From: Spirosoma sp.
GTDB lineage: Bacteria; Bacteroidota; Bacteroidia; Cytophagales; Spirosomataceae
DNA: 64,000 nt
NCBI RefSeq assembly: GCF_048594605.1
Contig: NZ_JBMDWV010000364.1
Span: forward strand, 5,916 to 69,915
Direction of reading: 5' to 3'
The position numbers were made by a program, and so were the translations under genes. The notes under the pieces are model-generated. The model worked only from the letters and a program-made list of their open reading frames with translations, did no database searches and was not told where the DNA came from. Within the stretch, counting starts at the first letter, position 1. Every line of letters begins with the position of its first letter. Positions 7,862 through 60,223 of the stretch are shown piece by piece.

Positions 7862-8001
7862 GAGGAATAAGTAGGATGAGGCCGGAAATTACATATTTCT
7901 GGATTTATTGCCTCTCCAATTGAGTCATCAGTCCAGATACAGTTATCATTAAAGTAACTCAGGCAAGATGGCTACTTATGTTCTGCTACGTGTCCAGACT
8001 C

Positions 8002-8739
8002 CTATTTTTTACGATCAATTAAGATGGTTTCTATATCATCTTTATAATTACGTCCGAGAGGAATAGGTTGATTATCAGATAGTATTAGCCGATTTCGTTC
8101 CATCCGGACTACGGATGCTTTCGCGACGATAAAGGATTTGTGCACTCGAAGAAAGCGGCTCTCCGGGAAAATACTGTGCATGGCTTTGATCGAGCCTTTG
8201 ATAACAATTTTGCCAGTAGTTGCGTGAATAATTGCGTAATCTTTCAGGCCCTGGATGTAGGTTACGTCCTCAAAATTGAGCTTGATACGTTGTGTGCCAC
8301 TCTTGACAAAAATTGATTCGGTCCGGGTTGTTCCCGGCAGGGTTTCTACTGGGCTATTTTCAAGCCGAACGTTTTGCGTTTTCAGGGTCAGAAAATCCCG
8401 GATTTTTTCGACGGTCTGTAAAAATCTGGAGTAAGCAATTGGCTTTAGTAAGAAATCGATGACGCCAAGTTCAAACCCTTCAAACGCATAATCTCGATAG
8501 GCCGTTGTAAAAACAGTGATGGGCGGCTGCGAGAGCGATTTAAGGAAATCAATTCCATTCATGCCAGGCATTTCGATGTCCAGAAGCAGTACGTCTGCTT
8601 CGTGATTTTCCAGATACACTAGTGCATCGTGGGCATTGCCAAATGAACGTATTGGTTCTATAAAGTTCAGCCGCGCGAGATATTCCTCCAGCACTTCGCG
8701 AGCCAGTGGTTCATCATCAATAATTACGCATTTTAACAT
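8002..8739 (-). CDS. LytTR family response regulator
   Basis: Receiver domain IIDDEPLA, LLLDIEMPGMNG, FTTAYRDYA and DFLLKP. C-terminal LytTR motif FLRVHKSFIV. Confidence 0.95.
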   Translation of the reverse strand: MLKCVIIDDEPLAREVLEEYLARLNFIEPIRSFGNAHDALVYLENHEADVLLLDIEMPGMNGIDFLKSLSQPPITVFTTAYRDYAFEGFELGVIDFLLKPIAYSRFLQTVEKIRDFLTLKTQNVRLENSPVETLPGTTRTESIFVKSGTQRIKLNFEDVTYIQGLKDYAIIHATTGKIVIKGSIKAMHSIFPESRFLRVHKSFIVAKASVVRMERNRLILSDNQPIPLGRNYKDDIETILIDRKK

Positions 8740-20279: not shown

Positions 20280-20285
20280 GGGTGT

Positions 20286-20363
20286 GGGGCAGAGGGATAA
20301 GGGCATGAGACAGGGAAAAACGAGTTGGGGTGCGGTAGGCGTTTTGCCCTATGCCCTTTGCCA
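20286..20363. repeat. Heptamer-periodic G/C-rich repeat (GGGGCAG AGGGATA AGGGCAT ... TTGCCCT ATGCCCT TTGCCAT)
   Basis: 7-nt periodic units in inverted arrangement between padR and the permease. Related units occur at 23455-23514. Confidence 0.55.
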
Positions 20364-21040: not shown

Positions 21041-23449
21041 ATGAAATCTTTACTACTTGTTATACTGGCGTTCGCGTCGAGTACCGGCCTTTTGTTGGCT
21101 CAAAACGCCAAAATTTCTGGTCTGCTGCTCGATTCGACCGCGAACAAACCTGTCGAATTTGCAACGGTGGCGCTTCTCAAAGAAGGCAAACCGATCCACG
21201 GCGTAACGGCGGATGCCAAAGGAAGCTTTACCTTTCAAAAAGTCGATGCTGGTCATTATGCCATTCAGGTTTCGTTTGTGGGCTACACCACAAAAACAAT
21301 AGACAAAGTGAACGTAGTGGCGGGGCAGGATGTAGAAGTTGGCGTGATCAGGCTGGCGCAAACGGTTCAGAAACTAGCCGAAGTGACCGTAACGGAACAG
21401 AAGGCGCTGTTCGAAGAAAAGGCTGACCGGATGGTGTACAATGCCGAAAAAGACATTAGTATCAAAGGCGGTGACGCTACGGACGTACTGAAGAAAATCC
21501 CGTCGATAGCCGTTGACCTTGAAGGGAATGTACAGTTACGGGGTAGCGCAAACATTAAAGTGCTCATCAACAACAAACCGTCCAGCATAGTGGCACGTAG
21601 CATTTCCGATGCGTTGAAGCAAATTCCGGCCGACATCATCAAGCAGGTCGAAGTCATTACGTCGCCGTCGGCAAAATACGATGCAGAAGGTACGGCAGGG
21701 ATCATCAATATCATTACCAAGAAAAACACGTTGCAGGGCACCAACGGCTCCATCAGCCCTAATTTCGGTCAGTGGAATAACTGGCAGAATGCTACGTTGA
21801 ACCACCGAATGAAAAGCATCAGCCTGTCTGCGAATGCCGGTTATAACGACTGGAGAAACAAGCGATATATGCAACAGCTACGTTCGTTCATGACGGGCGA
21901 TACCATTACGAATCAGAATCAGACGCAGTGGGTACTGGGCAATGGGCAAAATTTTTACGGCACCTTCACTGCTGATTGGGACATTGATTCGCTGAATCGG
22001 CTTGGTGCAGGACTGAACTATTACAATGGAGACAATACCAACGGCTTTGATATCAACTTTGAAGAAAGTCGTCGGGGTATTGTCGGGCAATATTTTCGTC
22101 GGGACATGAGCCGCACCTACGACTGGTCAGGCGCTACGGTTAATCTGGATTATACGCGCCTATTCAAAAAGCCTAAAAAAGAGCTCACGCTTCTGATGCT
22201 GTATTCGTTCGAGGGCGAAGACAGCGATTACTGGTCTAATCTGCTGAATCGAAACAACTCGATTTATTATCGCGAAAAGAGCTTCAACATCAGTAATAAC
22301 AAAGAAGGCACGGTTCAACTGGATTTCACGAATCCACTGGATAGCGCGAGCACGCTCGAACTGGGCACCAAAACGATCTTTCGGCAAATCCTGAGCGATT
22401 ATCGTATAGCCAGCGCCGTTGATGGATCGACCGACTTTGTTGACAATCCGGCGCTGGCCAACGTATTTGATTATGCCCAGCAGGTTGCCGCGGCTTACGT
22501 TGTGTATAACCGCACGTCAAAGAAAAAGTGGGGCATAAACCTGGGCGCCCGGTATGAGCATACATTTATCCAGGCTAATTTTCTGAACGGTACGTCGTCT
22601 TTCAACAATACGTACGGAAACCTGATTCCGAGTATCAGTTTGTCGCGGAGTTTGCCAAAAGAACAGAAGATACGGCTGAATTATTCGCAACGGATTCAGC
22701 GTCCGCAGTTTTACTACCTGAATCCTTACGTCAATCAGGCCGATTCCAAGAATCAGTATGGCGGCAACCCTTATCTGGCCCCCGAGCTAACTCATTCTGT
22801 TGAAGCCAATTATAGCGTGTCGATCAAGCAAACGAGTATCAACGCGTCCTTCTTTCTGCGTCAGACGAACAACGCTATCGAAGGTGTCAATACGGTCGAT
22901 AATGAGGGTGTGCTGAGACAAATTTTTCAGAACGTAGCGCAAAATTCGGCGTATGGCCTGAACCTGAGCGCGAACACTAAAATCATCAAGCAATGGTCGA
23001 TAAACGGTTCGCTCAATGTGTTTTATAACATACTGGAAAGCAAGGAGCTAAAGGCACGTAACGCCGACTGGATGTACCGGATTAACCTCAACTCAACCAT
23101 CGATTTTGGCAAAGGCTACAAAGCGCAGCTTTTCGGTTTTTACAACTCGGCCCGGGTTGGTTTGCAGGGTACATATGTTGGTTTTGGTTACTACAACGTA
23201 GTGATGCAAAAGGAAATCCTCAACAAAAAAGCGACCATCGGCTTTGGCTACGACATCCCGTTCAACGAAACCATCAACTGGCGTAATGACTTTGTTGGAC
23301 CCAATTTCGTGCAGACGCAGGACGTAGCGCTGTATCGTCGGGGCTGGCGCCTGAACCTTAAATACGAATTCGGGAAAATGAACAGCAACCAACGCCAGAA
23401 AAAGCGGATCAGTAACGACGATAAGAAAGCTGGCGAGGGGAATAATTAA
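21041..23449 (+). CDS. TonB-dependent receptor / outer membrane beta-barrel protein with carboxypeptidase-regulatory-like N-domain
   Basis: Signal peptide, SFVGY, LAEVTVT, plug motifs LKKIPSIAVD and VEVITSPSAKYDAEGTAGIINIITKK, then barrel strands ending LKYEFG. Confidence 0.92.
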   Translation: MKSLLLVILAFASSTGLLLAQNAKISGLLLDSTANKPVEFATVALLKEGKPIHGVTADAKGSFTFQKVDAGHYAIQVSFVGYTTKTIDKVNVVAGQDVEVGVIRLAQTVQKLAEVTVTEQKALFEEKADRMVYNAEKDISIKGGDATDVLKKIPSIAVDLEGNVQLRGSANIKVLINNKPSSIVARSISDALKQIPADIIKQVEVITSPSAKYDAEGTAGIINIITKKNTLQGTNGSISPNFGQWNNWQNATLNHRMKSISLSANAGYNDWRNKRYMQQLRSFMTGDTITNQNQTQWVLGNGQNFYGTFTADWDIDSLNRLGAGLNYYNGDNTNGFDINFEESRRGIVGQYFRRDMSRTYDWSGATVNLDYTRLFKKPKKELTLLMLYSFEGEDSDYWSNLLNRNNSIYYREKSFNISNNKEGTVQLDFTNPLDSASTLELGTKTIFRQILSDYRIASAVDGSTDFVDNPALANVFDYAQQVAAAYVVYNRTSKKKWGINLGARYEHTFIQANFLNGTSSFNNTYGNLIPSISLSRSLPKEQKIRLNYSQRIQRPQFYYLNPYVNQADSKNQYGGNPYLAPELTHSVEANYSVSIKQTSINASFFLRQTNNAIEGVNTVDNEGVLRQIFQNVAQNSAYGLNLSANTKIIKQWSINGSLNVFYNILESKELKARNADWMYRINLNSTIDFGKGYKAQLFGFYNSARVGLQGTYVGFGYYNVVMQKEILNKKATIGFGYDIPFNETINWRNDFVGPNFVQTQDVALYRRGWRLNLKYEFGKMNSNQRQKKRISNDDKKAGEGNN

Positions 23450-23520: not shown

Positions 23521-26181
23521 TTATTCACTACGTAGTGATTTTACCGGATTGACCAGCGCGGCTTTAATACTCTGAAAACTGATTGTTAGCAGCGCGATGC
23601 CGATGGCCAGCAGTCCGGATAGGGCAAAAATCCACCATTCTATATCAATTTTGTAGGCATAATCCTGCAACCAGCGGTTCATAGCAAACCAGGCAACGGG
23701 TGAGGAGATAACGATAGCGACGAACACTAGCTTAAGGAAATCCTGCGAAAGCAACGTAACGACGCTGGTTACCGATGCGCCCAGCACCTTACGAACGCCG
23801 ATCTCTTTGGTACGTTGCTCGGCCATAAAAGCTGCCAGCCCGAACAAGCCCAGACAGGAAATGAAAATGGCCAGAAACGCGAAGTAATTAGCTAGCGTCC
23901 CTACAATCGTTTCGCTACGGTATAATTGCTGAAAGGCTTCATCCGCGAATCGGTAGCGAAATGGGAACTTCGGATTCATCTGCCGCGTCAGCGTTTCCAT
24001 GCTTGCCAGTGCCTGTTTGGCCTGGCCCGGCTGGATACGAACGATAATACTTTTTCCTTTGCCTAGTTTGGCAATGAACGGTTCGATGGGCGTGTGCATG
24101 GAGCTTTGATGGTAATCGGAAATGACACCAACAATCGTTCCGGGTTTACCCCACATGGTTAATGGCTTACCGATGGGATCGCGGTAGCCGATACGTCGGG
24201 CAGCGGTTTCGTTAATGAGGAAATTGGCAGAATCGGCCCCAAACGCTTTCGAGAAATCGCGTCCGGTCACCTTTACTTTCAACGTCTTTGTAAAATCGTA
24301 GTCAACCGTTGAGAACTGAAACCAGATGCTCGCCATCGGATCTTTACCCGGCCACTGCACATTGCCCGTACTACCGAATCCATTAGTAGGGGTTCCATCC
24401 ATTTTGGTTACGGACTGAATACCAGGCATACGCAGCAACTCCTGCTTGAAGAGATCATACTTCTCGATCAGTTCGCCTTCGGAAGACAGATACACCATGC
24501 CATCCCGATCGAAACCCAGGTTTTTGGTCTGAATAAAATCGATTTGTCGATAAACGATAATCGTGCCGATAATCAGCAGCATCGACAAGGCAAACTGAAA
24601 AACCACCAGCCCCTGCCGGAAAAGACGAGCCCCCGAACCAAACCGAACACTCCCTTTCAGAACCCGAATCGGATTGAGCGACGACAGGAAAAGTGCCGGA
24701 TAACTGCCCGCAATCAGGCCCGTAGTGAGCGTCATTCCGAGTAGTATTCCCCAGAACGTAGCGTCGGTAAAGCGGAACGTAATCTGTTTGTCGGTCAGGC
24801 TATTAAACGTCGGTAACAACAACCACACAACCCCAACGGCTATCAACAGTGCTAGCGCCGTCAGCACCAGCGCTTCACCGATAAACTGACCAATCAGCCA
24901 GCTACGTCCAGCCCCAACCACTTTTCGAACGCCCACTTCGCGGGCTCGTTTGACGGAACGGGCCGTAGCCAGATTCATAAAGTTGATGCAGGCAATCAGC
25001 AGAATAAACACCGCCACGATGCCAAACAGCCGGACATATTCAATACGTCCGCCGTCCTGATATCCATTCTTGAAATTAGAATACAGGTACGCATCCTGGT
25101 ATGGTTGCAGGAAAAGCTGAACGTCCAGCCCGTGCTTTGCCATGCCTGGATTTTTGATTTTCAGAAACGACTTCATCTTGGCTTCCAGACGACCGGGGTT
25201 GGCCATTACGCCGTTGCGGTCGGTCTGAAGCATAATGCGGGTTTCGGCGGCATTTGTGCCCCATTCCTTGAGCCATTCGTTACGTCTCAGTATATCCGGC
25301 CAACTGAGCAGATAATCGTAAGTTTCTGAGCTGTTCTGCGGTATATTTTCAAAAACTGCACTGACCTGATAAACGTCTTTACCATCAATCTGGATGCTTT
25401 GCCCCATAGCGGCCTCCGGGCTGCCAAAATAATTTTCGGCCAGTTTTTGGGAAATGGCAATATTCGTTGGCGCACTCAGCGCCGTTTCGGCAGTACCCGC
25501 CAGCAAGGGAAAGCTAAACATCTTAAACCAGTCGGCTCCGGCGGATCTTCCTTTCTCTTTGTTTAATTTATCGCCTACCAAAAATGTTCGTTCCTCTTCC
25601 CACGAAAGGTTGGCCGCGTAGACAATCTCGGGAAATTCTTTTTTCAGTTCATCGGCCAGTAAGGCAGGAGTTCCGGAACCGGCATCGACCTTGCCGTCGT
25701 AAAACTGACGCTCCATTACGTTGTAAAGCTGTGGTCCGTTGGCATGATAGGCATCTACCCTGAATTCATCCTGAATCCAAAGGCCGATGAGCAGACTGCA
25801 GGCCATTCCCAGCGCAAGTCCGAGAATATTAATTGTTGAAAAGGATTTGTTGTGCGCGATGTTGCGCCAGGCAATTTTAAAATAGTTACGTAACATGTCT
25901 GGATTGAGTAAGAATGTGGTCCGGCATTCCGGAGAGGGATATTCCGAGTTGTAGCGGTTGCCGCTACGTCGAAGCGGCTTGAGAAAGTACGGGCGGAGGT
26001 AATGCAAAACGGCCCAGCCATACTCCCGACGCGCTTTGGACAGGCCAACTTCATCAATACGCTTATAAAAAACTTCATGTAAATCTCCCTGCACATCTTC
26101 CAGCAGACGGGGACTCAGACAAGTTTCCAGGAGCCAGTCGGCCCAGCGGGGAGGATCAGGAGTTCGAGGAGTGGTTTTCAT
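23521..26181 (-). CDS. MacB/FtsX-like duplicated ABC permease with permease-prefix extension (paralog 2)
   Basis: PPRWADWLL..LEDVQGDL, MLRNYFKIAWR, INFMNLATARS..RAREVGVRK, EQRTKEIGVRKVLGA, and C-terminal NPVKSLRSE. Confidence 0.94.
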   Translation of the reverse strand: MKTTPRTPDPPRWADWLLETCLSPRLLEDVQGDLHEVFYKRIDEVGLSKARREYGWAVLHYLRPYFLKPLRRSGNRYNSEYPSPECRTTFLLNPDMLRNYFKIAWRNIAHNKSFSTINILGLALGMACSLLIGLWIQDEFRVDAYHANGPQLYNVMERQFYDGKVDAGSGTPALLADELKKEFPEIVYAANLSWEEERTFLVGDKLNKEKGRSAGADWFKMFSFPLLAGTAETALSAPTNIAISQKLAENYFGSPEAAMGQSIQIDGKDVYQVSAVFENIPQNSSETYDYLLSWPDILRRNEWLKEWGTNAAETRIMLQTDRNGVMANPGRLEAKMKSFLKIKNPGMAKHGLDVQLFLQPYQDAYLYSNFKNGYQDGGRIEYVRLFGIVAVFILLIACINFMNLATARSVKRAREVGVRKVVGAGRSWLIGQFIGEALVLTALALLIAVGVVWLLLPTFNSLTDKQITFRFTDATFWGILLGMTLTTGLIAGSYPALFLSSLNPIRVLKGSVRFGSGARLFRQGLVVFQFALSMLLIIGTIIVYRQIDFIQTKNLGFDRDGMVYLSSEGELIEKYDLFKQELLRMPGIQSVTKMDGTPTNGFGSTGNVQWPGKDPMASIWFQFSTVDYDFTKTLKVKVTGRDFSKAFGADSANFLINETAARRIGYRDPIGKPLTMWGKPGTIVGVISDYHQSSMHTPIEPFIAKLGKGKSIIVRIQPGQAKQALASMETLTRQMNPKFPFRYRFADEAFQQLYRSETIVGTLANYFAFLAIFISCLGLFGLAAFMAEQRTKEIGVRKVLGASVTSVVTLLSQDFLKLVFVAIVISSPVAWFAMNRWLQDYAYKIDIEWWIFALSGLLAIGIALLTISFQSIKAALVNPVKSLRSE

Positions 26182-39588: not shown

Positions 39589-40368
39589 ATGAAAACGTTA
39601 TTGATGCTAGGCGTTGGTCTGGCGTGGTGTTTCGCTACGGCCAATGCGCAGGAATACAAAACCAAACTAACGAATTCGAAAGATAGGAAAGTAACGATTG
39701 AGATGGACGCTGCCCAACTCAAAATCGAAGGCCACAATAGCGATGAGGTTATTATTCAGGCGTCGACGGGCTACGAAGCGGCACCGGAACGAGCCAAGGG
39801 ACTAAAACCAATTTACAATACGGCTGTCGATAATTCCAGCATCGGTCTGGCCGTAACGCCCGAAAGCGGTGGACTGAAAATCGAAAAAGCGGCCCGTAAA
39901 CAAATTACATACACGATTAAACTACCTCGAAAAGTAGCGATTCTCTATCAGGAAACGAACTGGCATGGCTCAAACATCACCATAAGCAACATGGATGGTG
40001 ATCTGGAAATCCGCACAAACAACTCTGCGATTGATCTCAACAACGTAACCGGTCCCGTCGTCGCCAACACCATCAACGGCGAAGTAAACATTGTTTACTC
40101 CAGTCTGAGTCAGGAAAAACCAACTGCTATTTCTACCATCAACGGTCCCATCGACATTACCTTACCTGCCAACGCCAAAGCAAATCTGAAACTCCGGTCA
40201 GTAGGCGGGGAGATGTATACGGACTTTGATCTTGGCATGAAAAATTCAAAAGATGGGCTGGCCAAGGTAGGCGGTGGACGTAACATCGATGGATCGACCA
40301 ACGGTGGTGGCGTAGAGATGCAACTCAAGACCATCAATAGCAACATCTATATCCGTAAACAAAAATAG
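39589..40368 (+). CDS. DUF4097 family beta-strand repeat protein
   Basis: Signal peptide. Repeats TNNSAI, TINGEV, TINGPI, SVGGEM and TINSNI. Confidence 0.85.
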   Translation: MKTLLMLGVGLAWCFATANAQEYKTKLTNSKDRKVTIEMDAAQLKIEGHNSDEVIIQASTGYEAAPERAKGLKPIYNTAVDNSSIGLAVTPESGGLKIEKAARKQITYTIKLPRKVAILYQETNWHGSNITISNMDGDLEIRTNNSAIDLNNVTGPVVANTINGEVNIVYSSLSQEKPTAISTINGPIDITLPANAKANLKLRSVGGEMYTDFDLGMKNSKDGLAKVGGGRNIDGSTNGGGVEMQLKTINSNIYIRKQK

Positions 40369-40391
40369 ACCCCTTATTTCTGTCTGGTACC

Positions 40392-41090
40392 ATGAAAAAG
40401 ATTTTATTCCTACTTCTGCTTGGCCTGCTCATTCGCCCGGCTTTTTCGCAGAAAATCATTGAAAAATCACTGCCTGTTACGGCTGGCCAGTTGGTTAATC
40501 TAAACCTGAAATTTGCCGATAGCATCCGGGTACGGTATTGGGATCAGCCCAACGTATCGGTACGTATTTCGGTTACAATCAACGGTGGCAAACTGAATGA
40601 TGCGCTGACCGTAGCGACCGGTTCAACGGATAAAGAAGTTAGTCTTAAAACCGACTTCGATCAAGAACTTATCAAGCAGGGTAAAGACGAAGATTGCCCC
40701 AAACGCAATTACTCGATGAACGTCAATCGCGATGGAAAGGGATACAGCGTTTGTAGCAATATTAATTATCAGGTATTTGTGCCCCGGCAGGCGCAGCTGA
40801 AAATCGAAACGATCAGCGGTAATATCGACATTCAGGGTGGAACGGCTCCCGTTTTTGCGAAAACCATCAGCGGCTACGTAGATATGACCTGGCCCAAGTC
40901 GAAAGGGGCAAATCTGGCGATGCAAACTATCACCGGAGAGGTTTACTCGGACCTTGACATTGCATTCACCTCGAAGAAGCAAAAGAATCCAATGGTCGGT
41001 TATCTGCTGGAAGGAACCGTTAACGGTGGAGGTCCTAATGTGCGGCTGGAGTCGATTAGCAACAATGTTTATTTACGAAAGAAAGAGTAG
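40392..41090 (+). CDS. DUF4097-like beta-strand repeat protein
   Basis: Signal peptide. Repeats TISGNI, TISGYV, TITGEV and SISNNV. Confidence 0.8.
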   Translation: MKKILFLLLLGLLIRPAFSQKIIEKSLPVTAGQLVNLNLKFADSIRVRYWDQPNVSVRISVTINGGKLNDALTVATGSTDKEVSLKTDFDQELIKQGKDEDCPKRNYSMNVNRDGKGYSVCSNINYQVFVPRQAQLKIETISGNIDIQGGTAPVFAKTISGYVDMTWPKSKGANLAMQTITGEVYSDLDIAFTSKKQKNPMVGYLLEGTVNGGGPNVRLESISNNVYLRKKE

Positions 41091-45979: not shown

Positions 45980-46250
45980 AAGCTGTTACGTTATGGGTGA
46001 TAGTTACTTAAGTTAGGATGTGCTACGTTACAGTAAAAGATCAGTTTTTCTGATTTCTTACTACGTGCTCTCTTTGTCGTGCTTGCCAGTTTCTGGAAAT
46101 AACCGACCGTTCGCTAAATCACTCAGTATCAGTAGACCAATGTAGCATCCATTTCGCGTACTTACTGCACATTTCGCGTGCGATTCATTGGCTCTGGACG
46201 TAACATCCCTGATGCTTCAGCAAGTACTACGTCCTTCACCCTTCTTCTGC

Positions 46251-49200
46251 ATGAAAGCCTTAACCATTAGAGTCAACGGCCACCAACTCAAAGATGAGGA
46301 GGTAGCTGCAAAAAACGAACAGACCGCAAACCTAACGCTTGACGAGGTCTACGTAATCGGCGCTGCCATGCGCGGAGAGCCCGAAAGCCGCCCGACAATC
46401 AAATTGGACGACACCAAAGTTGTGGAGTTTACCTATGATGACAACACGACCTGGATCGGCGATCATACGACGATCGAAGAGATTTTTCCGGGTACTCTGG
46501 CACAGGTACGTAGCGCCGAAGTGGGAGAGGATGTTGTCGATATTCCTACGGAGGTGGCTGTTAGCGAACCGGGCCGGAGTGGTGAACTGGTGAAGGTGGT
46601 ACTCAAAATGGTGAAAATTTTTACCAAGAAAAAGGTGCTGTCGCCACTGGTTCATAAACTGGCTGAAGACTTTGAGAAAAAGCAGTTGCAGGGACGATCG
46701 GGCCTGTATCGGTTCGCTTACACCGGCAGTAAATTTGAATTTACAGACACAAGAGACTTCCGCGGAAAATCGACATTCGAGCCAGACGGCAAATATATTC
46801 TGTTTCTACACGGTACGGCCTCGTCTACAACGGGATTTTCAGACGATCCTACCTCGCATAATACGGGTTCGTTTGGCGAACTGAAGGGCACTCAGTTATG
46901 GACTTACATAACGCAAACCTTCCCCAGCAACGTACTAGCCTTTGAACACGAAACGCTCACCAAAAGCCCGCTGGAAAATGTCCGTGACCTGGTTAATCTG
47001 CTACCGCAAAAAGCTACCCTAACTCTCGTCAGCCATTCACGCGGGGGATTGGTGGGCGACATCCTGAACCGCTACTGTGTCGAAGACCCGACGTTACGTG
47101 GTTTTTCGGCCAAGGAGAAGAACTATCTCAGCCGGCAGAAGCGACAGGACGAACTCAACCTGATTGAGGAGATTGATAAGGCGATTGTCGGGAAAACGAT
47201 TACCATCGAGAAGTTCATCCGGGTGGCCTGTACGGCCAGTGGTACTACGTTGGCATCGAGTCGGCTGGATATTTATTTTAACGTTATTTTTAATCTGATT
47301 GGTCTGGCAACGGCGCAGGCCGCCAATCCGGCCTATATGGCTTTCAAGGAGTTGGTTACGGCTCTGATTGAAAGCAAAAGCGACGCATCGGTACTACCGG
47401 GACTGGAGATGCAGAATCCGCAGTCGGTATTCAATCAGATGCTCAACAACGCCAATCCAGACGTACTGATTAATACGCCTTTAGTGGTCATATCGGGCGA
47501 TGCCAAACTAAGTAAGCGCTGGTCGGCTATTAAAGTAGTATTGGCGAATCTGTTCTTCTGGGGCGACAATGATTTCGTAGTCGATACGCGCTCGATGTAC
47601 AACGGGGCTAAACGGGCACCGGGCAAAGTACAATTCTTTTTTGATGAAGGGGCCGAGGTGAGCCACTTTAACTATTTTAAGAATGATACGACACGAAACG
47701 CGCTGTTTCAGGCCTTAAGTACGCCCGGCGGTAAGCCTATTCCTAGTTTTACAAAGCTGGAAATCAGGGATTTTACGAAAGAAGAAGTCCGTAATATCGA
47801 CCTCGGTTTACCGGGTGGCCGCGTATTCCGCGACAAGGTGTCCGGAAAGAAACCAATTGTAGTGCTGTTGCCTGGTATTATGGGCAGTACGCTAACGGTG
47901 AGTGACAATCTGGTCTGGATTAACTTCCTGAGTTTCATCAATGGCGGACTGACACATTTACTCTACAGTGATGATAATAACAAAAACGTTCGGGCTGACG
48001 CCCTGGTAGGGAGCTCATACAGGAAACTGACCGAATTTCTCGCTCGTGATTATGACGTAGTAACCTTCCCGTTCGATTGGCGAAAAGACATGGCCCTAAA
48101 CGCCGAAGCGCTGGACCGAAAACTGGCCGAGTTGATGGAGTTTCAGCAGCCGGTTAAGCTCATTGGGCATTCGATGGGTGGGGTATTGATTCGTGATTTT
48201 ATTATTAATCATCCCAAAACCTGGGAGAAACTGAATGCCAGTAGTAACTTCCGGTTGATTTTTCTAGGCTCGCCCCTGAAAGGTTCATTCCGCATCCCTT
48301 ACGTTCTTTTCGGGCTGGATTCGCTGATCAATACGCTGGATCTTATCGACATCAGCAACTCTCGGAAAGAGTTGCTGACGGTATTCTCTCAATTCCCTGG
48401 CATACTGAGTCTGTTACCGCTAACGACTGAAAAAGACAATAAACCCGATAGTGATAATGATTTTGCCAAAAGCAGCACCTGGGAGGATATGCGCGATGCT
48501 TATGGCGACGGAAAATGGCCCATACCCACGCAGGAGCTGTTAGTGAAATTCGCGGATTATCGGGGAAAAGCGCTGGAGTTTGACCAGGATGAAAACCAGA
48601 AAGAACCTCAGGAACGCGCCTACCGTAATGCGATCTATATCGCCGGACAATCGCGCCAAAACCAGCAGACCATAAGCGGATATCGGATCAACAGGACGGG
48701 TAAACGGCCTGCACTGGAATTCCTGGCTACGAAAGAAGGCGACGAGAGCGTAACCTGGGAGAGCGGCATTCCACAGGCGATTCTTAATCAGGATACTGTC
48801 TACTATTCCGACGTACCGCACGGCGAACTGGCCAACGATCCGAAGTTGTTTGGAGCCATTACAGACATTCTGGCTACAGGTGCCACTACTCAGCTTAAAC
48901 GAACCCGACCGGCGTTACGTAGTCTGGAGAAAGAATTTAAAGCTCGTGCCGTTTTCGACTTCGATACATCGCCGGACGGGGTTGAAAAAACGCTGATGGG
49001 GTTAGGTTCCGACAATCGGTTTTCGGCCAGTAACGTACCGATTAATGTATCAGTCAGTAACGGCGATCTGAAGTACGCGCTGTACCCGATTATGGCCGGA
49101 CATTTTGAAAAAGATGGTATTCTTTCCGCCGAAAAAGTGATTGACTTGGCGCTAAAAGGTGAATTGAGTCGTCGGCATCGGTTGGGGCAATATCCGGGCG

Positions 49201-51788
49201 CGTTTGGTACTAGCAAAACGGTCAGCTCCGGAAGCGCGACAGGGTTTCAGGGAGCAATTATTATTGGCCTGGGACAGCAGGGGTCGCTGACCGAATTCCG
49301 ACTTACCAGCGCCATCGAACACGGTGCTACCAACTATTTAGTCAATTTAAACAGCCGGTATGACAATCTTGGTAGCAAAGACCAGGTTTCGCAACGTATC
49401 GGAATATCGGCCCTACTGATCGGATCGGGCTACGGTGGGCTGCGCGTCGAAAATTCGATCCGGGCTATCATTCAGGGAGTGCAGAACGCCAACGCCAAAG
49501 TGCGGCAGGTGTATGCATCGCCTAAAGTTATAGACATTATCGAGTTTGTTGAACTCTACAAAGATAGGGCGCTGGCCTGCGTAAAAGCCATTGGGTCTAT
49601 CGAGAAAGAAGAAAGCCGGTCGCTTAATATTTTCAGGAGTGGCAACAAAATTAAGCAGCTTATCGGCTGGCGCGAACGGCTACCAGTTGATGACACAGCC
49701 GAGTGGTGGACCCGCATCACCGTAAGCCGACCTGCCAGCGAAGAGGGTAGTAAAGAACAACGGCGCAGTTTACAGTTTACGATCTCCACTGATGCCGCCC
49801 GCGTTGAAGAACGCCCACTCAAAACACTCAATGATACGCTCACCAACATGCTGGAAGAAATCTCCCGAAAAGGTGACTGGTCGGCGGAGCGGGCAAAAGC
49901 CATCTTTGAGCTGATGATCCCGAATGATTTTAAGGATCAGGTAAAACGTCAGAGCAATATTAACTGGATTCTGGATAAGTACACGGCGGCTTTTCCCTGG
50001 GAACTGTTGCAGGATAATGTAGCCAATGCACGCCCACTGAGCGTTAATGCGGGTATGATTCGTCAACTGGCTACAGGCGATTTTCGTATTAACATCAATC
50101 CCGTAGTCGAACGTACGGCTTTCGTGGTAGGCGACCCTGATCTGAAGAATCCGGCTATTCAGCTTAAAGCGGCTTTTGAAGAAGGTCAGAAAGTAGCCAG
50201 CTTATTCGGCACGCAGGATTTTCAGGTTACCTCGCTGCTGAAAGCAACGGCAGAGCAGATCATGCTCAACCTGTTCAGTAAAGATTACAAAGTGGTACAT
50301 CTGGCCGGACATGGGGTCTTTAACAGCGACCCAAATCAGCCGACAGGTATGCTCATCGGCCCGAACGCTTTTCTGACCCCATCGCACATCGACCAAATGA
50401 GCAATGTACCGGAACTCGTGTTTGTCAATTGCTGCTACTTAGGACAGAACGATGGAACTGCCGAACGCTTTAGCCGAAGCCGGTTTCGGCTGGCGGCCAA
50501 TATCGGTACACAATTGATCGAAATTGGCGTGAAAGCGGTGGTGGTGGCTGGCTGGGCGGTTAACGACAGTGCGGCCCTCGACTTTGCCGAACGATTTTAT
50601 GAGAGCCTGTTCGAGAATTACAATTTCGGCGAATCGATCAAGCGGGCACGCAAAGCTGTATTTGAGAAATACGGACTACGGAACAACACCTGGGGGGCGT
50701 ATCAGTGCTACGGAGATCCATTCTATAAACTCTCGAATGAAACTCGCAAAACAAAAGAAGCTTACAGTTTCATCATCCCGGAAGAGGCTGAAATTGAATT
50801 GAGTAATCTGCTACGACGAGTAGACGCAGGAGGCCATGACCCGGAAGCTGTTGGGCAAACAATGGATGCTATCGACAAAGCACTTCTTCAGGCAGGTATC
50901 AAAAGCGCGCGAACTACCGAACTGCAGGCTCTGCTTTATTGTGCCTTGAACAAGTACGAACAGGCCGTAGCGAAATTTGATGAGCTTTGGAAGGAAGAAC
51001 GGGCTTCCTTCTCTTTTTCGGCTACTGAAAAGTACTGCAATACAAAAGTTAAATGGTACGTATTACAGATAAAACAAAAGGGAAGCACTAACCCCGAATT
51101 TATCACTCAGGCCATTGCAGGCATTAGGAAGGCAGCCGAAGATCTGGAAGCACTGAACCAGTTTGGCGTAACGGCAGAGCGAACAAACATATTGGCCAGT
51201 ACGTATAAACGGCTGGGAATGATCATCCGTAACGAGTTAGACAAATCGGAAGGCGAAAGCGATAAACATAAAGCCAAAATCGATGAGAAGCAGAAAGCTT
51301 ACGCTGGCTCGGCTTTCTTTTATCGAACCGCCTATGAAATGCCCGACAACAAAGCGAAATTCTATCCTTTAGTCAACTGGCTGTCTATCGAGAATGCGCT
51401 GGTAATCGCTGGTAGTCGAGCCTGGGGAAAAGCGCCAAAAGGAGAAGATATAAAGTTGCCGACAACCGAAGAAGCTTATAAATACCTTGATGATGAACTG
51501 GGAAGTGTCCGCCAGAAATCGCAGGAAGAGAAAGAATACTGGGACTGGGTTGCTGTGGCAACGCTCCTGTTGTGCAAACGCCTGCTGGGCGACACGACGA
51601 TTACAGAAGATCAGATTCTGGCTGAATTTAAGAATGTCTGGCAAGTAGTAGGCACACAAGGACAGCATCAGGTCGAGATCGAGAATTTTGAATTCCTGAT
51701 GGATGCTCTGGGCATGGGAGGGAGCAAAGCTCAGGAGTCTTATGACGTAGTGAAACGGCTTAAAATGGCGCTGGAAGTACTGGTGTAG
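46251..51788 (+). CDS. Large CHAT (caspase-like) domain protein with two alpha/beta-hydrolase (lipase/LCAT-like) domains and a helical TPR-like C-terminus
   Basis: Hydrolase 1: FLHGTASS, SHSRGG (~47030), DNDFVV, SHFNY. Hydrolase 2: LPGIMGS, FDWRK, GHSMGG (~48165), GDESV, PHGEL. CHAT: FPWELL, HLAGHG (~50300), FVNCC (~50425), VAGWAVND, WGAYQCYGDP. Likely start ATG 46251. Confidence 0.88.
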   Translation: MKALTIRVNGHQLKDEEVAAKNEQTANLTLDEVYVIGAAMRGEPESRPTIKLDDTKVVEFTYDDNTTWIGDHTTIEEIFPGTLAQVRSAEVGEDVVDIPTEVAVSEPGRSGELVKVVLKMVKIFTKKKVLSPLVHKLAEDFEKKQLQGRSGLYRFAYTGSKFEFTDTRDFRGKSTFEPDGKYILFLHGTASSTTGFSDDPTSHNTGSFGELKGTQLWTYITQTFPSNVLAFEHETLTKSPLENVRDLVNLLPQKATLTLVSHSRGGLVGDILNRYCVEDPTLRGFSAKEKNYLSRQKRQDELNLIEEIDKAIVGKTITIEKFIRVACTASGTTLASSRLDIYFNVIFNLIGLATAQAANPAYMAFKELVTALIESKSDASVLPGLEMQNPQSVFNQMLNNANPDVLINTPLVVISGDAKLSKRWSAIKVVLANLFFWGDNDFVVDTRSMYNGAKRAPGKVQFFFDEGAEVSHFNYFKNDTTRNALFQALSTPGGKPIPSFTKLEIRDFTKEEVRNIDLGLPGGRVFRDKVSGKKPIVVLLPGIMGSTLTVSDNLVWINFLSFINGGLTHLLYSDDNNKNVRADALVGSSYRKLTEFLARDYDVVTFPFDWRKDMALNAEALDRKLAELMEFQQPVKLIGHSMGGVLIRDFIINHPKTWEKLNASSNFRLIFLGSPLKGSFRIPYVLFGLDSLINTLDLIDISNSRKELLTVFSQFPGILSLLPLTTEKDNKPDSDNDFAKSSTWEDMRDAYGDGKWPIPTQELLVKFADYRGKALEFDQDENQKEPQERAYRNAIYIAGQSRQNQQTISGYRINRTGKRPALEFLATKEGDESVTWESGIPQAILNQDTVYYSDVPHGELANDPKLFGAITDILATGATTQLKRTRPALRSLEKEFKARAVFDFDTSPDGVEKTLMGLGSDNRFSASNVPINVSVSNGDLKYALYPIMAGHFEKDGILSAEKVIDLALKGELSRRHRLGQYPGAFGTSKTVSSGSATGFQGAIIIGLGQQGSLTEFRLTSAIEHGATNYLVNLNSRYDNLGSKDQVSQRIGISALLIGSGYGGLRVENSIRAIIQGVQNANAKVRQVYASPKVIDIIEFVELYKDRALACVKAIGSIEKEESRSLNIFRSGNKIKQLIGWRERLPVDDTAEWWTRITVSRPASEEGSKEQRRSLQFTISTDAARVEERPLKTLNDTLTNMLEEISRKGDWSAERAKAIFELMIPNDFKDQVKRQSNINWILDKYTAAFPWELLQDNVANARPLSVNAGMIRQLATGDFRININPVVERTAFVVGDPDLKNPAIQLKAAFEEGQKVASLFGTQDFQVTSLLKATAEQIMLNLFSKDYKVVHLAGHGVFNSDPNQPTGMLIGPNAFLTPSHIDQMSNVPELVFVNCCYLGQNDGTAERFSRSRFRLAANIGTQLIEIGVKAVVVAGWAVNDSAALDFAERFYESLFENYNFGESIKRARKAVFEKYGLRNNTWGAYQCYGDPFYKLSNETRKTKEAYSFIIPEEAEIELSNLLRRVDAGGHDPEAVGQTMDAIDKALLQAGIKSARTTELQALLYCALNKYEQAVAKFDELWKEERASFSFSATEKYCNTKVKWYVLQIKQKGSTNPEFITQAIAGIRKAAEDLEALNQFGVTAERTNILASTYKRLGMIIRNELDKSEGESDKHKAKIDEKQKAYAGSAFFYRTAYEMPDNKAKFYPLVNWLSIENALVIAGSRAWGKAPKGEDIKLPTTEEAYKYLDDELGSVRQKSQEEKEYWDWVAVATLLLCKRLLGDTTITEDQILAEFKNVWQVVGTQGQHQVEIENFEFLMDALGMGGSKAQESYDVVKRLKMALEVLV

Positions 51789-51890: not shown

Positions 51891-52955
51891 TTATAGGGTT
51901 TTCAACACCTCGCCAGCCGCAGCTTTAATCTGTACCCAATCTTTTTCTATGTCAGCTTCGGAGAGGAAATAGAACGGTGCAAACGTAGCGCGGGTAATAC
52001 GGTTCAGGCCACGAAACGGTTGTCCCGCTTTCCACATAGCGTTGGCAAAGCGGCAAAACAACTGCTTCTCTTTCTGACTGATAGAGTCAGATGAAACAGC
52101 TTTCAGAAGAGTGGACGGCAGTTTATGTTGCGTTGTGACCAGATAGTTCAAACCGCATTCGAGCGCATAAAAACCTGCTACGTTGGTAGCTACTTTCTGT
52201 TCTTTAACGGATTTAGTTACGATTGCCTGCTCATCTTCGGAAGTAAGAAAAGGTGGAGCTGGTTTTTGCTGGGCAGCGTAATAGGCAGCCTCCTGAAAGC
52301 GGGCGATATCGGCGGCCAATTGCTCATCCTGCAACAGGCTCCGCAGTTTTCTAAATTGATCTTCGGCTGTATCGTTACGTACCGACTGCATCATAGTCAG
52401 TAACGTAGCAGCAGCTGCCCGAATCTGATCATAATCTTTCCTGGCTTCATCCTCCGGTAGTAAGCTGGCTATGCAGAAAATCGGACGTTTGATCCGCGCA
52501 AGCCCCCGGAAAGGCTGACTCGCTTTCCACGTAGCGTTAGCAAACCGGTTTAGCAACAAGACAGTTGTGGAGTCCGCTTTGTTGTCTACGAGGGTCTGCA
52601 AAAAGTCGGTTGGTTTCTGATTCGTTTGTGCACAAACGGCTCCGAGACCGCATTCCAGCGCGTAAAATCCTGCCAGATTCGTCGCTATTTTTTCATCTTT
52701 TAGCTTAACGTTTACAGTTGCCGTATCCTCGCCGGGCGATAATAAAGGCATGGGCGTTTCACCCACACCAACGTAATACGCTCTGTTCTGAGCCTCCGCT
52801 ATTTCATTAGCAAACGTTTCATTACGTAGTAACGAGTCGATAGTAGCGAGTTCTTTATCAATCTGTTGGGTTAGATTTTCTTCTTTTTGTTGCGTCATAC
52901 AAGACAAAGCTAGAGAGACAAGTAATAAATGCAGATACAGGTTACCCGATTTCAT
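51891..52955 (-). CDS. Hypothetical lipoprotein made of two tandem ~150-aa repeats
   Basis: Lipobox ALSC. ATN.AGFYALECG, FANA.WKA.QPFRGL.RI and KD..QI.AAA each occur twice. Confidence 0.85.
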   Translation of the reverse strand: MKSGNLYLHLLLVSLALSCMTQQKEENLTQQIDKELATIDSLLRNETFANEIAEAQNRAYYVGVGETPMPLLSPGEDTATVNVKLKDEKIATNLAGFYALECGLGAVCAQTNQKPTDFLQTLVDNKADSTTVLLLNRFANATWKASQPFRGLARIKRPIFCIASLLPEDEARKDYDQIRAAAATLLTMMQSVRNDTAEDQFRKLRSLLQDEQLAADIARFQEAAYYAAQQKPAPPFLTSEDEQAIVTKSVKEQKVATNVAGFYALECGLNYLVTTQHKLPSTLLKAVSSDSISQKEKQLFCRFANAMWKAGQPFRGLNRITRATFAPFYFLSEADIEKDWVQIKAAAGEVLKTL

Positions 52956-58465: not shown

Positions 58466-60223
58466 CTATAACGTAAAGCTCATTTGTCCGATGAGTTGAG
58501 GGCCTACCTTTGCTGTAAACCAATACAAACCCGGTCCTGTCAACGTAACGGCTTCCTGAACCTGACTGGTGTTAACGTACTGTTTTTGAAAAACGACAGC
58601 GCCCTGCGCCGTGGTCACCTGCACATCAATCGTAGTGGGAGTAGGAACGGCAATTCTCATCGTTGCCGAATTGTTGGCTGGGTTGGGGTAAAGCACCATC
58701 TGCCCTTCAAAGCGCAGGTCCTGATTGTCGACGTTGACAGCATATGTGTCTGTGAGACAACCCTGCGGATCACTCACCGTATACGTCGTGGAAACAGTTG
58801 GCGATACGGTGATGGTTCGGCTTGTCTGACCAGTATTCCACACATAATCACCCGGCCACGACGCCCTGAGTGTCAAGGATTCATTTGGATTAATAGAAAA
58901 TGTTTGCTGCCGGTTTACCTGTTTTATCATTGTAAACCGATCTTTCACCGTACCGTCAGAAGCCACCCACTGGGCGTCTAACCGATTGTCGTTTACATCA
59001 ATTAGCATAGAACCGCCCTGCTGATTATTTGCATAAACCATGGCCGGGTGCGGATAACCGGTTGCCTGCCCGCCTAACTGTCCACCGCTACCCGCTACTA
59101 CGTAGATAGTGCCCGTCTGTTTGTTACTAATTGGGCAGGAGTTGGGCGACCCATCATAACGGGCAGTGCTTGTAGAAACGGCATGCTGACCAAGATTAAA
59201 CGTAGTGGCCGATCCATAATGCCCCTTCAGTAAATACGTTCGTTCATAAACATGGCTATGTCCAGATAGTACAAGGTCTACGTTATAGCGTTCCAGAATA
59301 GGGACAAGTTTCTGCCGTAGCTGAATCTGATCGTCGAAAAAGTCAGAATCACGCGAACCTTTGCTATAAGGCGGGTGATGGAAAAAGACAATCGTCCAGG
59401 GCAACTGATTCGCAGCCAGATCCTGTTTGAGCCACTGAGCTTGTCTGCCTGTTGTGTCGTATAAACGCGTGCCATCATTTCCTTCAGAATCCATCGAAAT
59501 GATGTGAACATTCGCATAATCAAATGAATAATTAAGCTTCGAGCCTGACGCAATTCCGCCCGCTTCAGCCTCCTGTGGAACCGTAATGATGTTGAAGTAG
59601 TCGATGTTCAGGTTGGTTGGTACGTCAACATATTCGTGGTTCCCGGCGGTCGGCCAGAACGGTAAGTGTTTCAGCAAGTCGGTGTAAATTGTGAATACAT
59701 TTTGTTGATATTGAAGATCGGTGCCCTGACCATACGCGTTGTCGCCCAGCCAAAGCCAGATATCGGCAGGGCGACTCTGGGTGGCCTGACGGTACCGTTG
59801 AAGTACGTCCAACTGATTCGCCGTTCCACTGCCAAAATCACCCAGCGCCCAGATCCGTACCGGTACGGCTGTTCCGGCAGGAGGGGAGGTTTGAAAATAT
59901 TGATCACTAGAAACCATCAAATCTCCAGCAGTTGACCCAATCGAGTAGTAATAGCGGGTGGAGGGTTGCAGGCCCGTCAGCGTAACAATATGCTCTGTTG
60001 TGAACGTAGCGTCGGTAATCTGCTGATTTAGTTGATCAAGACTAGCGCCGAAGCGAACACGGCTATTGGTCGGCTGGTCGGTGCGCCAGCGAATGGTGAT
60101 TCCTGTTGGTGTAACGGCCTGCAGATAAGGTGAACGTAAAACACTTTGCCCTCGTGACGTAACAGAAAGCAGCGTCAAGTAAACCAAAACTACAAGGCAA
60201 CGTAGTAAAATACGTATTATCAT
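58466..60223 (-). CDS. Purple acid phosphatase-like metallophosphoesterase with T9SS C-terminal domain
   Basis: FN3-like PYLQ..TPT...IRW, GDFG, GDNAY, GNHE, FHHPPY, SGHSH.YER and C-terminal VLYPNPA. Confidence 0.92.
   Translation of the reverse strand: MIIRILLRCLVVLVYLTLLSVTSRGQSVLRSPYLQAVTPTGITIRWRTDQPTNSRVRFGASLDQLNQQITDATFTTEHIVTLTGLQPSTRYYYSIGSTAGDLMVSSDQYFQTSPPAGTAVPVRIWALGDFGSGTANQLDVLQRYRQATQSRPADIWLWLGDNAYGQGTDLQYQQNVFTIYTDLLKHLPFWPTAGNHEYVDVPTNLNIDYFNIITVPQEAEAGGIASGSKLNYSFDYANVHIISMDSEGNDGTRLYDTTGRQAQWLKQDLAANQLPWTIVFFHHPPYSKGSRDSDFFDDQIQLRQKLVPILERYNVDLVLSGHSHVYERTYLLKGHYGSATTFNLGQHAVSTSTARYDGSPNSCPISNKQTGTIYVVAGSGGQLGGQATGYPHPAMVYANNQQGGSMLIDVNDNRLDAQWVASDGTVKDRFTMIKQVNRQQTFSINPNESLTLRASWPGDYVWNTGQTSRTITVSPTVSTTYTVSDPQGCLTDTYAVNVDNQDLRFEGQMVLYPNPANNSATMRIAVPTPTTIDVQVTTAQGAVVFQKQYVNTSQVQEAVTLTGPGLYWFTAKVGPQLIGQMSFTL

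Follow-up and report, generated by a model that had tools for sequence, protein, structure and literature searches.

In a 64-kb stretch of Spirosoma sp. contig NZ_JBMDWV010000364.1 (the window, in whose positions all coordinates are given), we analyzed a single giant gene at 46251..51788 on the plus strand, which encodes 1,845 amino acids (aa) plus a stop codon, with residues numbered from the ATG at 46251. Its product is a real, uncharacterized architecture that runs from an N-terminal beta-rich domain through a DUF7379 hydrolase, an LCAT-like hydrolase, a macro-like (M17_N-like) module and a CHAT domain to a C-terminal domain of the TPR-S/DUF4071 type. We tentatively read this protein, at a little short of an even chance, as a cytoplasmic signal-gated “executioner” of the conflict or abortive-infection type, in which TPR-S would be the input, the macro-like module and CHAT the switch, and the two lipases the output. 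The original prediction for this DNA had described one protein of about 1845 aa without a signal peptide, carrying two lipase-type hydrolases, an intact CHAT domain and a DUF4071/TPR-S-like C-terminus. Pfam, structure models and homologue alignments bear out these domain calls, and the open reading frame (ORF), leader and hydropathy checks bear out the single leaderless chain.

Hydrolase 1 (residues 176-500; 46776..47750, plus strand) was assigned to the alpha/beta-hydrolases by Pfam, residue invariance and elbow topology, with DUF7379 (PF24096) matching residues 183-272 plus further stretches (E = 2.6e-25, 89.9 bits against a cutoff of 33). Hydrolase 2 (residues 533-878; 47847..48884, plus strand) is an LCAT/LPLA2-like alpha/beta-hydrolase by Pfam, PDB alignments and a predicted local distance difference test (pLDDT) score above 90; here the LCAT family (PF02450) matches residues 599-733 (E = 1.9e-8, 34.4 bits against a cutoff of 21), covering model positions 83-204 of 392 or about one third. 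The CHAT caspase-like protease domain (residues 1213-1492; 49887..50726, plus strand) rests on residue invariance, a structural match and a Pfam hit (PF12770) at residues 1214-1489 that covers the full model (E = 1.6e-24, 87.3 bits against a cutoff of 24). The helical TPR-S/DUF4071-type domain (residues 1511-1845; 50781..51785, plus strand) was delimited by Pfam, jackhmmer and common conserved positions, while no family match was found for the N-terminal beta-rich domain (residues 1-175; 46251..46775, plus strand). Searching the giant against NCBIfam returned nothing informative.

We judged invariance in 43 and then in 112 full-length homologues (43-89% identity). The candidate triads of hydrolase 1 (S263, 47037-47039; D441, 47571-47573; H472, 47664-47666) and hydrolase 2 (S641, 48171-48173; D831, 48741-48743; H857, 48819-48821) are invariant in all 112, as are the oxyanion motif HGT187-189 of the former, DWR609-611 within the FDWR motif (608-611) of the latter, and H1354-G1355 (H1354, 50310-50312) and C1394-C1395 (50430-50435) of CHAT. 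Every motif quoted in the original prediction for two Ser-Asp-His sets and a CHAT His-Gly/Cys dyad is thus present. Structure prediction, which had been proposed there as a check, agrees: in AlphaFold2 models of the giant's two halves (mean pLDDT 79.0 and 79.5), S263 and S641 occupy nucleophile elbows of strand-turn-helix form, and in hydrolase 2 D831 and H857 come behind the final two strands of the core. H1354 and C1394 each follow the C-terminal end of a strand (479-484 and 520-525 of the half-model), and the two strands are neighbors, an arrangement known from clan CD peptidases. When the N-terminal half was submitted to Foldseek, the top matches were other bacterial lipases rather than LCAT, namely BlEst2 (5e-6) and then Geobacillus L1/T1, Pseudomonas and Proteus lipases and PlaB, the matched hydrolase not being specified. 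By sequence, the S641 elbow (GHSxG) of hydrolase 2 aligns with human LCAT and PLA2G15. A profile of hydrolase 1 weakly matched 7x2p, a “putative lipase”, and a single-sequence search of PDB sequences with hydrolase 1 found no match. For CHAT, Foldseek aligned 375 columns with the Craspase TPR-CHAT chain 7y84_C (probability 1.0). Judged from sequence and models, CHAT is a candidate protease with intact His and Cys for which proteolysis is predicted, and both hydrolases are candidate lipases with predicted lipid hydrolysis.

The linkers between these modules are predicted to be disordered, with low pLDDT, and contain isolated invariant arginines. Linker 1 (residues 501-532; 47751..47846, plus strand) carries R514 (47790-47792) and inter-module linker 2 (residues 879-930; 48885..49040, plus strand) carries R890 (48918-48920); R87 and R109 are of the same kind. 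What the original prediction had called a linker domain ahead of CHAT is correctly positioned, and we correct its nature: it is a folded macro-like/M17_N-like module (residues ~931-1125; 49041..49625, plus strand), identified by Foldseek and a weak Pfam M17_N match, plus a small beta/alpha subdomain (residues 1126-1212; 49626..49886, plus strand) with conserved WW1152-1153 that lies between the macro-like module and CHAT. Foldseek confirmed the three-layer fold of the macro-like module through matches to 2dx6 and derivatives (target TM-scores 0.69-0.75), and also to the N-terminal domains of leucyl aminopeptidase (LAP). Its conserved motifs are GHFxxDG (950-956), GxxxxGLG (1001-1008) and YGGL (1061-1064). 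The Pfam Peptidase_M17_N match at residues 952-1026 is below threshold and recurs as a weak match in 13 of 15 family members, among which no Pfam Macro family matched at E<=1. A profile of the module gave only noise against PDB sequences and retrieved 1,465 clusters at 50% identity, 1,250 of them at E<=1e-10.

Evidence on the input side comes from the C-terminal domain. ThsI, the effector of type VIII Thoeris, combines a “CMP hydrolase” with an Aravind-type tetratricopeptide repeat (TPR) that is its proposed receptor, and is activated by canonical cyclic ADP-ribose (cADPR) (bioRxiv 10.64898/2025.12.03.692087). Stand-alone TPR-S/DUF4071 proteins of about 450 aa encoded near some homologues of the giant appear, by analogy, to fit this published description. 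A jackhmmer search started from four such ThsI-like proteins retrieves the giant in 74 loci (window copy, 3e-16), and in a joint alignment E1643, K1653, Y1691, Y1705, N1709, Y1763, W1764 and W1797 are conserved in giants and stand-alone proteins alike. Close family members score 41.6-52 bits with the Pfam TPR-S model, above its 27.6 cutoff, and Foldseek paired the C-terminus with ligand-binding TPRs of a generic kind, Rap, NprR and LGN among them. The common signature is the pattern that would be expected of one ligand pocket, and it favors a second-messenger reading over direct sensing of a phage trigger. The earlier suggestion of direct sensing of the primary trigger by the helical part is not borne out; the ThsI-like signature points to a small-molecule second messenger from another protein, for example a TIR enzyme. 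If the messenger does come from another protein, the giant would be an effector and not a complete one-gene system.

The family is large. More than 120 clusters at 90% identity retain the full architecture, relatives occur in at least 478 GTDB species genomes, and the listed matches, mostly from Bacteroidota, include Cytophagales, Chitinophagales, Flavobacteriales, Bacteroidales and Ignavibacteria. Homologues of the DUF7379, LCAT and CHAT combination with 27-30% identity were also found on proteobacterial plasmids of Azotobacter, Paracoccus, Ensifer and Burkholderia. Mean pairwise identity is 0.54-0.63 in the catalytic domains, with CHAT the most conserved (0.63), and 0.38-0.39 in the N-terminal domain and TPR-S, the two fastest-evolving parts, as expected of effectors carried on variable input domains.

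Variants of the standard form of ~1,800 aa point the same way. In one relative (P0169), nSTAND1 is joined to both lipases and to the macro-like-CHAT core, and a weak TIR-like gene precedes it, 12 bp upstream. Another (P0177) consists of macro-like module, CHAT and TIR and lies directly behind AAA (MoxR-like) and faint-vWA genes, a setting similar to that of the VMAP ternary systems in Kaur et al. 2020; a partial gene downstream of it was considered as a DUF7379 lipase and is not one. P0121, P0143 and others are lipase-less forms in which unrelated leaders precede the macro-like module, CHAT and TPR-S, and the lipase-less relatives start within the equivalent of linker 2, which holds R890. The partial gene upstream of P0121 has marginal similarity (E = 0.016). 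P0236 has a different C-terminus on the same core, and several paralogues with different inputs occur per genome in Salmonirosea (P0023 and L081) and on a Chitinophagaceae chromosome (L056 and L083). Taken together, this set of variants identifies the macro-like module and CHAT, usually plus two lipases, as an invariant core with variable inputs, and that core is shuffled as in immune systems. Two further proteins (P0029 and P0096) carry an extra N-terminal module of YEATS (PF03366) and PF20305 ahead of the standard architecture. In five Bacteroidales loci (L016, L024, L031, L034 and L057) the giant is followed, after 24-94 bp and in the same orientation, by a ~470-aa Amidohydro_2 gene. P0256 (2,228 aa) is a giant with a C-terminal fusion to the same Amidohydro_2 family, and adjacency and fusion together hint, in Rosetta-stone fashion, at a third enzymatic partner.

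Pairing of a protease with a lipase also recurs outside the family. On a Qingshengfaniella plasmid (L087, 6920-9442), an 840-aa protein combines a Trypsin_2 peptidase with an LCAT-like lipase whose homologous stretch in the giant is residues 507-884. In S. validum (L088, 21325-25182), a 1,285-aa protein with Amidase_2, Peptidase_C14 (caspase) and Lipase_GDSL_2 domains is followed by an LRR-Roc-COR-TIR protein, and is an independent caspase and lipase fusion made from unrelated domain families. Because protease and lipase are joined repeatedly with unrelated domains (LCAT-like with Trypsin_2, C14 with GDSL, and the caspase with alpha/beta-hydrolase of VMAP systems), the pairing itself is likely to be functional.

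For genomic context we clustered the flanking ORFs of 80 loci plus the window (81 loci). In the 80 loci no gene accompanies the giant throughout the family, in keeping with the original prediction that the gene has no obvious partners. A survey of neighborhoods for defense association had also been suggested there, and it finds such an association in a minority of loci that includes the closest relatives, and not in most loci or the window. Among 133 immediate neighbors, the conflict-type minority comprises WYL (3), TIR_2 (3), Zeta toxin (4), TPR-S (2) and caspase (1). TIR-like ORFs lie within 10 kb of the giant in 6 of 80 loci by phmmer and in up to 14 of 80 by jackhmmer, and separate ThsI-like TPR-S genes (~450 aa) are nearby in about 9-10 of the 80. 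In S. validum, TIR, Amidase_2-Peptidase_C14-GDSL-lipase and LRR-Roc-COR-TIR proteins are encoded within 10 kb downstream; in Nibrella a TIR-LRR-Roc-TIR gene is next but one to the giant; and upstream of the S. linguale copy are DUF4062, AAA_5 and a 1,393-aa TPR protein. TIR-like giants flank the S. arboris homologue on both sides (local HMMER only). The Salmonirosea paralogue L081 sits among TIR-nSTAND1-LRR, C14-TIR, a ThsB_TIR plus TPR-S pair and HigB, and the Azotobacter copy, on a MOBH plasmid, adjoins type I restriction-modification, Fic, PD-(D/E)XK and insertion sequence elements. The giant thus often borders variable conflict islands, and such an island is absent from the window. The conflict or cell-death character proposed at the outset fits the TIR, STAND, caspase and restriction-modification neighborhoods of close relatives and the fusion variants.

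Given this pattern, we propose a mechanism in which the C-terminal TPR-S domain would perceive a trigger. To judge by the analogous TPR of type VIII ThsI, that trigger would most likely be a nucleotide second messenger of the TIR type, for example a cADPR isomer, and its source would be TIR proteins, which relatives encode nearby and this genome may encode elsewhere. In the invariant core of macro-like module and CHAT, autoinhibition of CHAT would be lifted, and CHAT would then cut the exposed linkers, with R890 and R514 as candidate sites. Cleavage would free or unmask the DUF7379 and LCAT-like lipases, leading to hydrolysis of membrane phospholipids and to death or arrest, and CHAT may degrade other proteins too. 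The caspase of type IV Thoeris cleaves at Arg and degrades many proteins once activated (10.1101/2024.10.24.620036). This Arg specificity, the invariant linker Arg and the lipase-less forms that start in the R890 linker together suggest linker cleavage. The ligand, the activation, the cleavage sites, the lipid substrates and a phage-defense phenotype of the giant are all putative. In a more specific version, which we consider unlikely in its entirety, the giant would be an orphan second-messenger-gated death module whose TPR-S domain, perhaps together with the macro-like module, binds a cADPR-type signal from unlinked TIRs, and whose CHAT domain cuts the Arg linkers and so licenses two phospholipases. 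If true, the family would hold a caspase-to-lipase proteolytic cascade in one polypeptide, kept across Bacteroidota and exchanged on proteobacterial plasmids, and the giant would represent, in fused form, the archetype of protease-lipase executioner pairing in general.

Several observations weigh against the executioner reading, and rival explanations draw on some of them. D441 of hydrolase 1 falls in a low-pLDDT segment of the AlphaFold2 model. The window protein itself scores 27.0 bits with Pfam TPR-S (PF20308; residues 1569-1712, 7e-6), below the cutoff of 27.6, and we infer from the wording of the paper alone that the TPR of ThsI is PF20308. The macro-like module is nearer to the N-terminal domain of LAP, which is not known to bind ADP-ribose, than to Pfam Macro. 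No match to TIR was found in the 64-kb window, which also holds no STAND or other defense gene, with a PADLOC candidate model matched by one of the 42 other ORFs of at least 150 aa; the giant itself matches no PADLOC model (library of 2023, which may predate type IV Thoeris). The homologue search found no phage copies of the giant. The only apparent split between lipases and protease, in Salmonirosea aquatica (L081), was considered as an evolutionary separation of a lipase gene from a macro-CHAT-TPR-S gene and rejected: it is a 1-nt frameshift inside a fused-type gene, at 7990-8010 after codon ~870, which yields ORFs of 880 and 959 aa and may reflect an error in sequencing, a pseudogene or a split of very recent date. 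An intact copy (P0023) lies on the same chromosome as well. This absence of a true split, like the fused architecture kept intact in more than 120 full-length homologues, would suit a parallel multi-effector that acts without self-cleavage, in which trigger-induced oligomerization activates the protease and the tethered lipases together, CHAT cleaves cellular proteins promiscuously and the linker Arg are interface contacts. The macro-like fold of leucyl aminopeptidases serves oligomerization, and the activated type IV Thoeris caspase degrades many proteins, as CHAT would here. We regard this account as doubtful, though not to be dismissed, since the lipase-less and other-output forms show that the halves are separable, the isolated invariant Arg sit in low-pLDDT linkers, and a constitutively tethered cytoplasmic phospholipase would still need masking.

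A different objection concerns immunity itself. The immediate neighbors are mostly housekeeping genes (biotin carboxyl carrier protein (BCCP), PFK, SRP54, S16 and amylase), the surroundings in the window are catabolic, and gene order in the flanks is conserved within each of the genera Aequorivita and Algoriphagus. The neighbor-joining tree largely follows the orders and places several lineages in Chitinophagales, and inheritance looks largely vertical within genera, unlike that of a mobile defense gene. Together with the lack of a PADLOC match and the high conservation of all catalytic domains across orders (45-60%), these data would fit a vertically inherited lipid-remodeling or developmental cell-death enzyme of Bacteroidota, serving in stress, starvation, biofilm or gliding-colony turnover, with CHAT as a maturation protease and TPR-S reading a metabolic cue. 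We find such a non-immune role improbable in view of the nSTAND1 and TIR fusions, the TIR, ROCO, caspase and restriction-modification neighborhoods in the closest relatives and on plasmids, the paralogues with different input domains in one genome (Salmonirosea, Chitinophagaceae) and the TPR-S signature common with Thoeris-type effectors. The original prediction had named vertical inheritance in housekeeping contexts as a result that would speak against it; this describes most loci and not the conflict neighborhoods of the closest relatives. Lipase-protease polytoxins occur in interbacterial competition, and the probably exported lipoprotein encoded next to the giant could in principle be an immunity protein, so that a toxin exported against other cells, as a contact-dependent or secretion-system cargo, was also weighed. 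We reject it as very unlikely: neither a signal peptide nor a transmembrane segment was found in the giant (top 19-residue Kyte-Doolittle mean, 1.44), its C-terminus is TPR-S and not a type IX secretion system (T9SS) sorting domain, which the window ORF at 58466-60223 does have, type VI secretion system and Rhs markers are not among the recurring neighbor families of the 80 loci, and the lipoprotein accompanies the giant in just 12 of 81 loci.

At the gene itself, a single open frame spans 46188..51788 on the plus strand. We take ATG 46251 as the start, as homologue alignments begin at the same Met; the public gene caller begins 13 codons upstream at ATG 46212, giving 1,858 aa (P0001) under the annotation “CHAT domain-containing protein”. 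A perfect 10-bp direct repeat, CATTTCGCGT, occurs at 46150-46159 and 46170-46179 (plus strand, starts 20 bp apart), 72-101 bp 5' of the start codon, with no other copy in the window (0.21 expected by chance). It was dropped as a candidate regulatory site because it is not conserved upstream of homologues in relatives. On the 5' side lie an S9 peptidase gene and a divergent GH95 gene on the minus strand, and on the 3' side a convergent 354-aa ORF (51891..52955, minus strand) with a lipoprotein-type leader (...LALSC) is followed by oxidoreductase, esterase and cyclic nucleotide monophosphate regulator genes, so that the GH95 and convergent lipoprotein flanks given in the original prediction hold. 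The surroundings are catabolic and housekeeping genes. The 354-aa ORF has no match in Pfam or NCBIfam and contains an internal duplication, with two copies of ...ATN(L/V)AGFYALECGL...RFANA(T/M)WKA(S/G)QPFRGL.... It is kept beside the giant in all Spirosoma and Nibrella loci despite changes in the other flanks, and turns up again near it in some Chitinophagaceae. Its product is probably exported, and a functional link to the giant is unproven. Elsewhere in the window, upstream of the S9 peptidase gene, lies a tandem of genes for DUF4097 “toastrack” proteins (259 and 232 aa; 39589-41090, plus strand). A TonB-dependent receptor-like gene (21041-23449) sits between two ADOP-family duplicated ATP-binding cassette permeases with “permease prefix domain 2” (17580-20306 and 23521-26181, both minus strand). 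The ORF at 58466-60223 (minus strand) encodes a 585-aa metallophosphoesterase-like protein whose T9SS type A sorting tail, which the giant lacks, identifies the host as a T9SS-bearing member of the Bacteroidota.

The component domains are already known. DUF7379, LCAT, CHAT and TPR-S are all catalogued in Pfam, and both the caspase-hydrolase pairing and the idea of TPR-S as a sensor are in the comparative-genomics literature. Most bacterial caspase-like proteins have no known function (10.1101/2024.10.24.620036). The literature searched, including recent defense surveys, yielded neither the fused architecture, nor the macro-like-CHAT core, nor experiments on either, nor any bacterial functional work on DUF7379 or DUF4071. 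The giant unites caspase-like proteases, lipid-degrading effectors and the TPR-S sensor recently implicated in cADPR-dependent Thoeris signaling, which have so far been studied apart. If our reading is true, this would be, to our knowledge, the first case of a prokaryotic caspase-like protease licensing lipases. It would also assign a role to DUF7379 and the macro-like module, and would mean that Thoeris-type effectors can persist as stand-alone chromosomal genes far from TIR. The domain set echoes eukaryotic ASK1-type TPR-S, caspases and LCAT/PLA2G15 and is relevant to links between bacterial and eukaryotic cell death. If the reading is wrong, the family is still a well-defined and abundant Bacteroidota enzyme.

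Set beside known systems, the giant resembles ThsI of type VIII Thoeris in its C-terminal TPR-S/DUF4071-type domain, with the same E/K/Y/Y/N/YW/W positions by way of the stand-alone proteins that match the ThsI description, and in the TPR-S proteins and TIR genes beside it in a minority of loci. It differs in its output, which is two lipases and a macro-like-CHAT core and not a nucleotide hydrolase. Unlike any type of Thoeris, which is defined by an operon with TIR, it has no TIR gene (ThsB) adjacent in the window or in most loci. In type IV Thoeris, the effector ThsE is a caspase-like protein activated by N7-cADPR (Rousset et al., 10.1101/2024.10.24.620036); here too a clan CD caspase-like protease would serve as a signal-gated killing module joined to a separate ligand-sensing domain, and the Arg-specific cleavage by ThsE offers a rationale for the conserved linker Arg of the giant. 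ThsE, however, has another protease subfamily and another sensor, works from a two-gene operon with TIR and has no lipases. Csx29 of the type III-E CRISPR (clustered regularly interspaced short palindromic repeats) system, Craspase, has the CHAT fold and helical repeats in common with the giant, but its TPR is N-terminal to CHAT and it is activated through gRAMP/crRNA, whereas the helical domain of the giant is C-terminal. A CRISPR association was ruled out: the window has no array, no Cas model was matched by any of its other 42 ORFs (150 aa or longer), and no partner is conserved.

The MoxR-vWA-VMAP ternary conflict systems feature an obligate coupling of a caspase-superfamily protease with an alpha/beta-hydrolase (Kaur et al. 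2020, PMC7159879). The giant has the same pairing fused in one chain, but its lipase is duplicated (DUF7379 and LCAT-like) and coupled to TPR-S, and MoxR and vWA are absent from its neighbors in the window; VMAP-type genes do occur near relatives, as AAA (MoxR-like) and faint-vWA for P0177 and as AAA_5 for S. linguale. With LCAT/PLA2G15 (PF02450), hydrolase 2 has the elbow, the DWR motif and invariant Asp and His at canonical positions in common, whereas the giant is predicted to be cytoplasmic, bacterial and multidomain, with about one third of the Pfam model matched. The proposed end-point, degradation of membrane phospholipids in abortive infection, is that of the patatin CapV of the cyclic-oligonucleotide-based antiphage signaling system (CBASS), although CapV has a patatin fold in place of an alpha/beta-hydrolase and is activated directly by a cyclic nucleotide with no protease layer. 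A gasdermin gene, which would define a gasdermin-protease system, is not a conserved neighbor across the 80 loci. By their defining features, the giant thus belongs to none of the Thoeris, Craspase, VMAP or gasdermin systems, and it plausibly works in the manner of a Thoeris effector.

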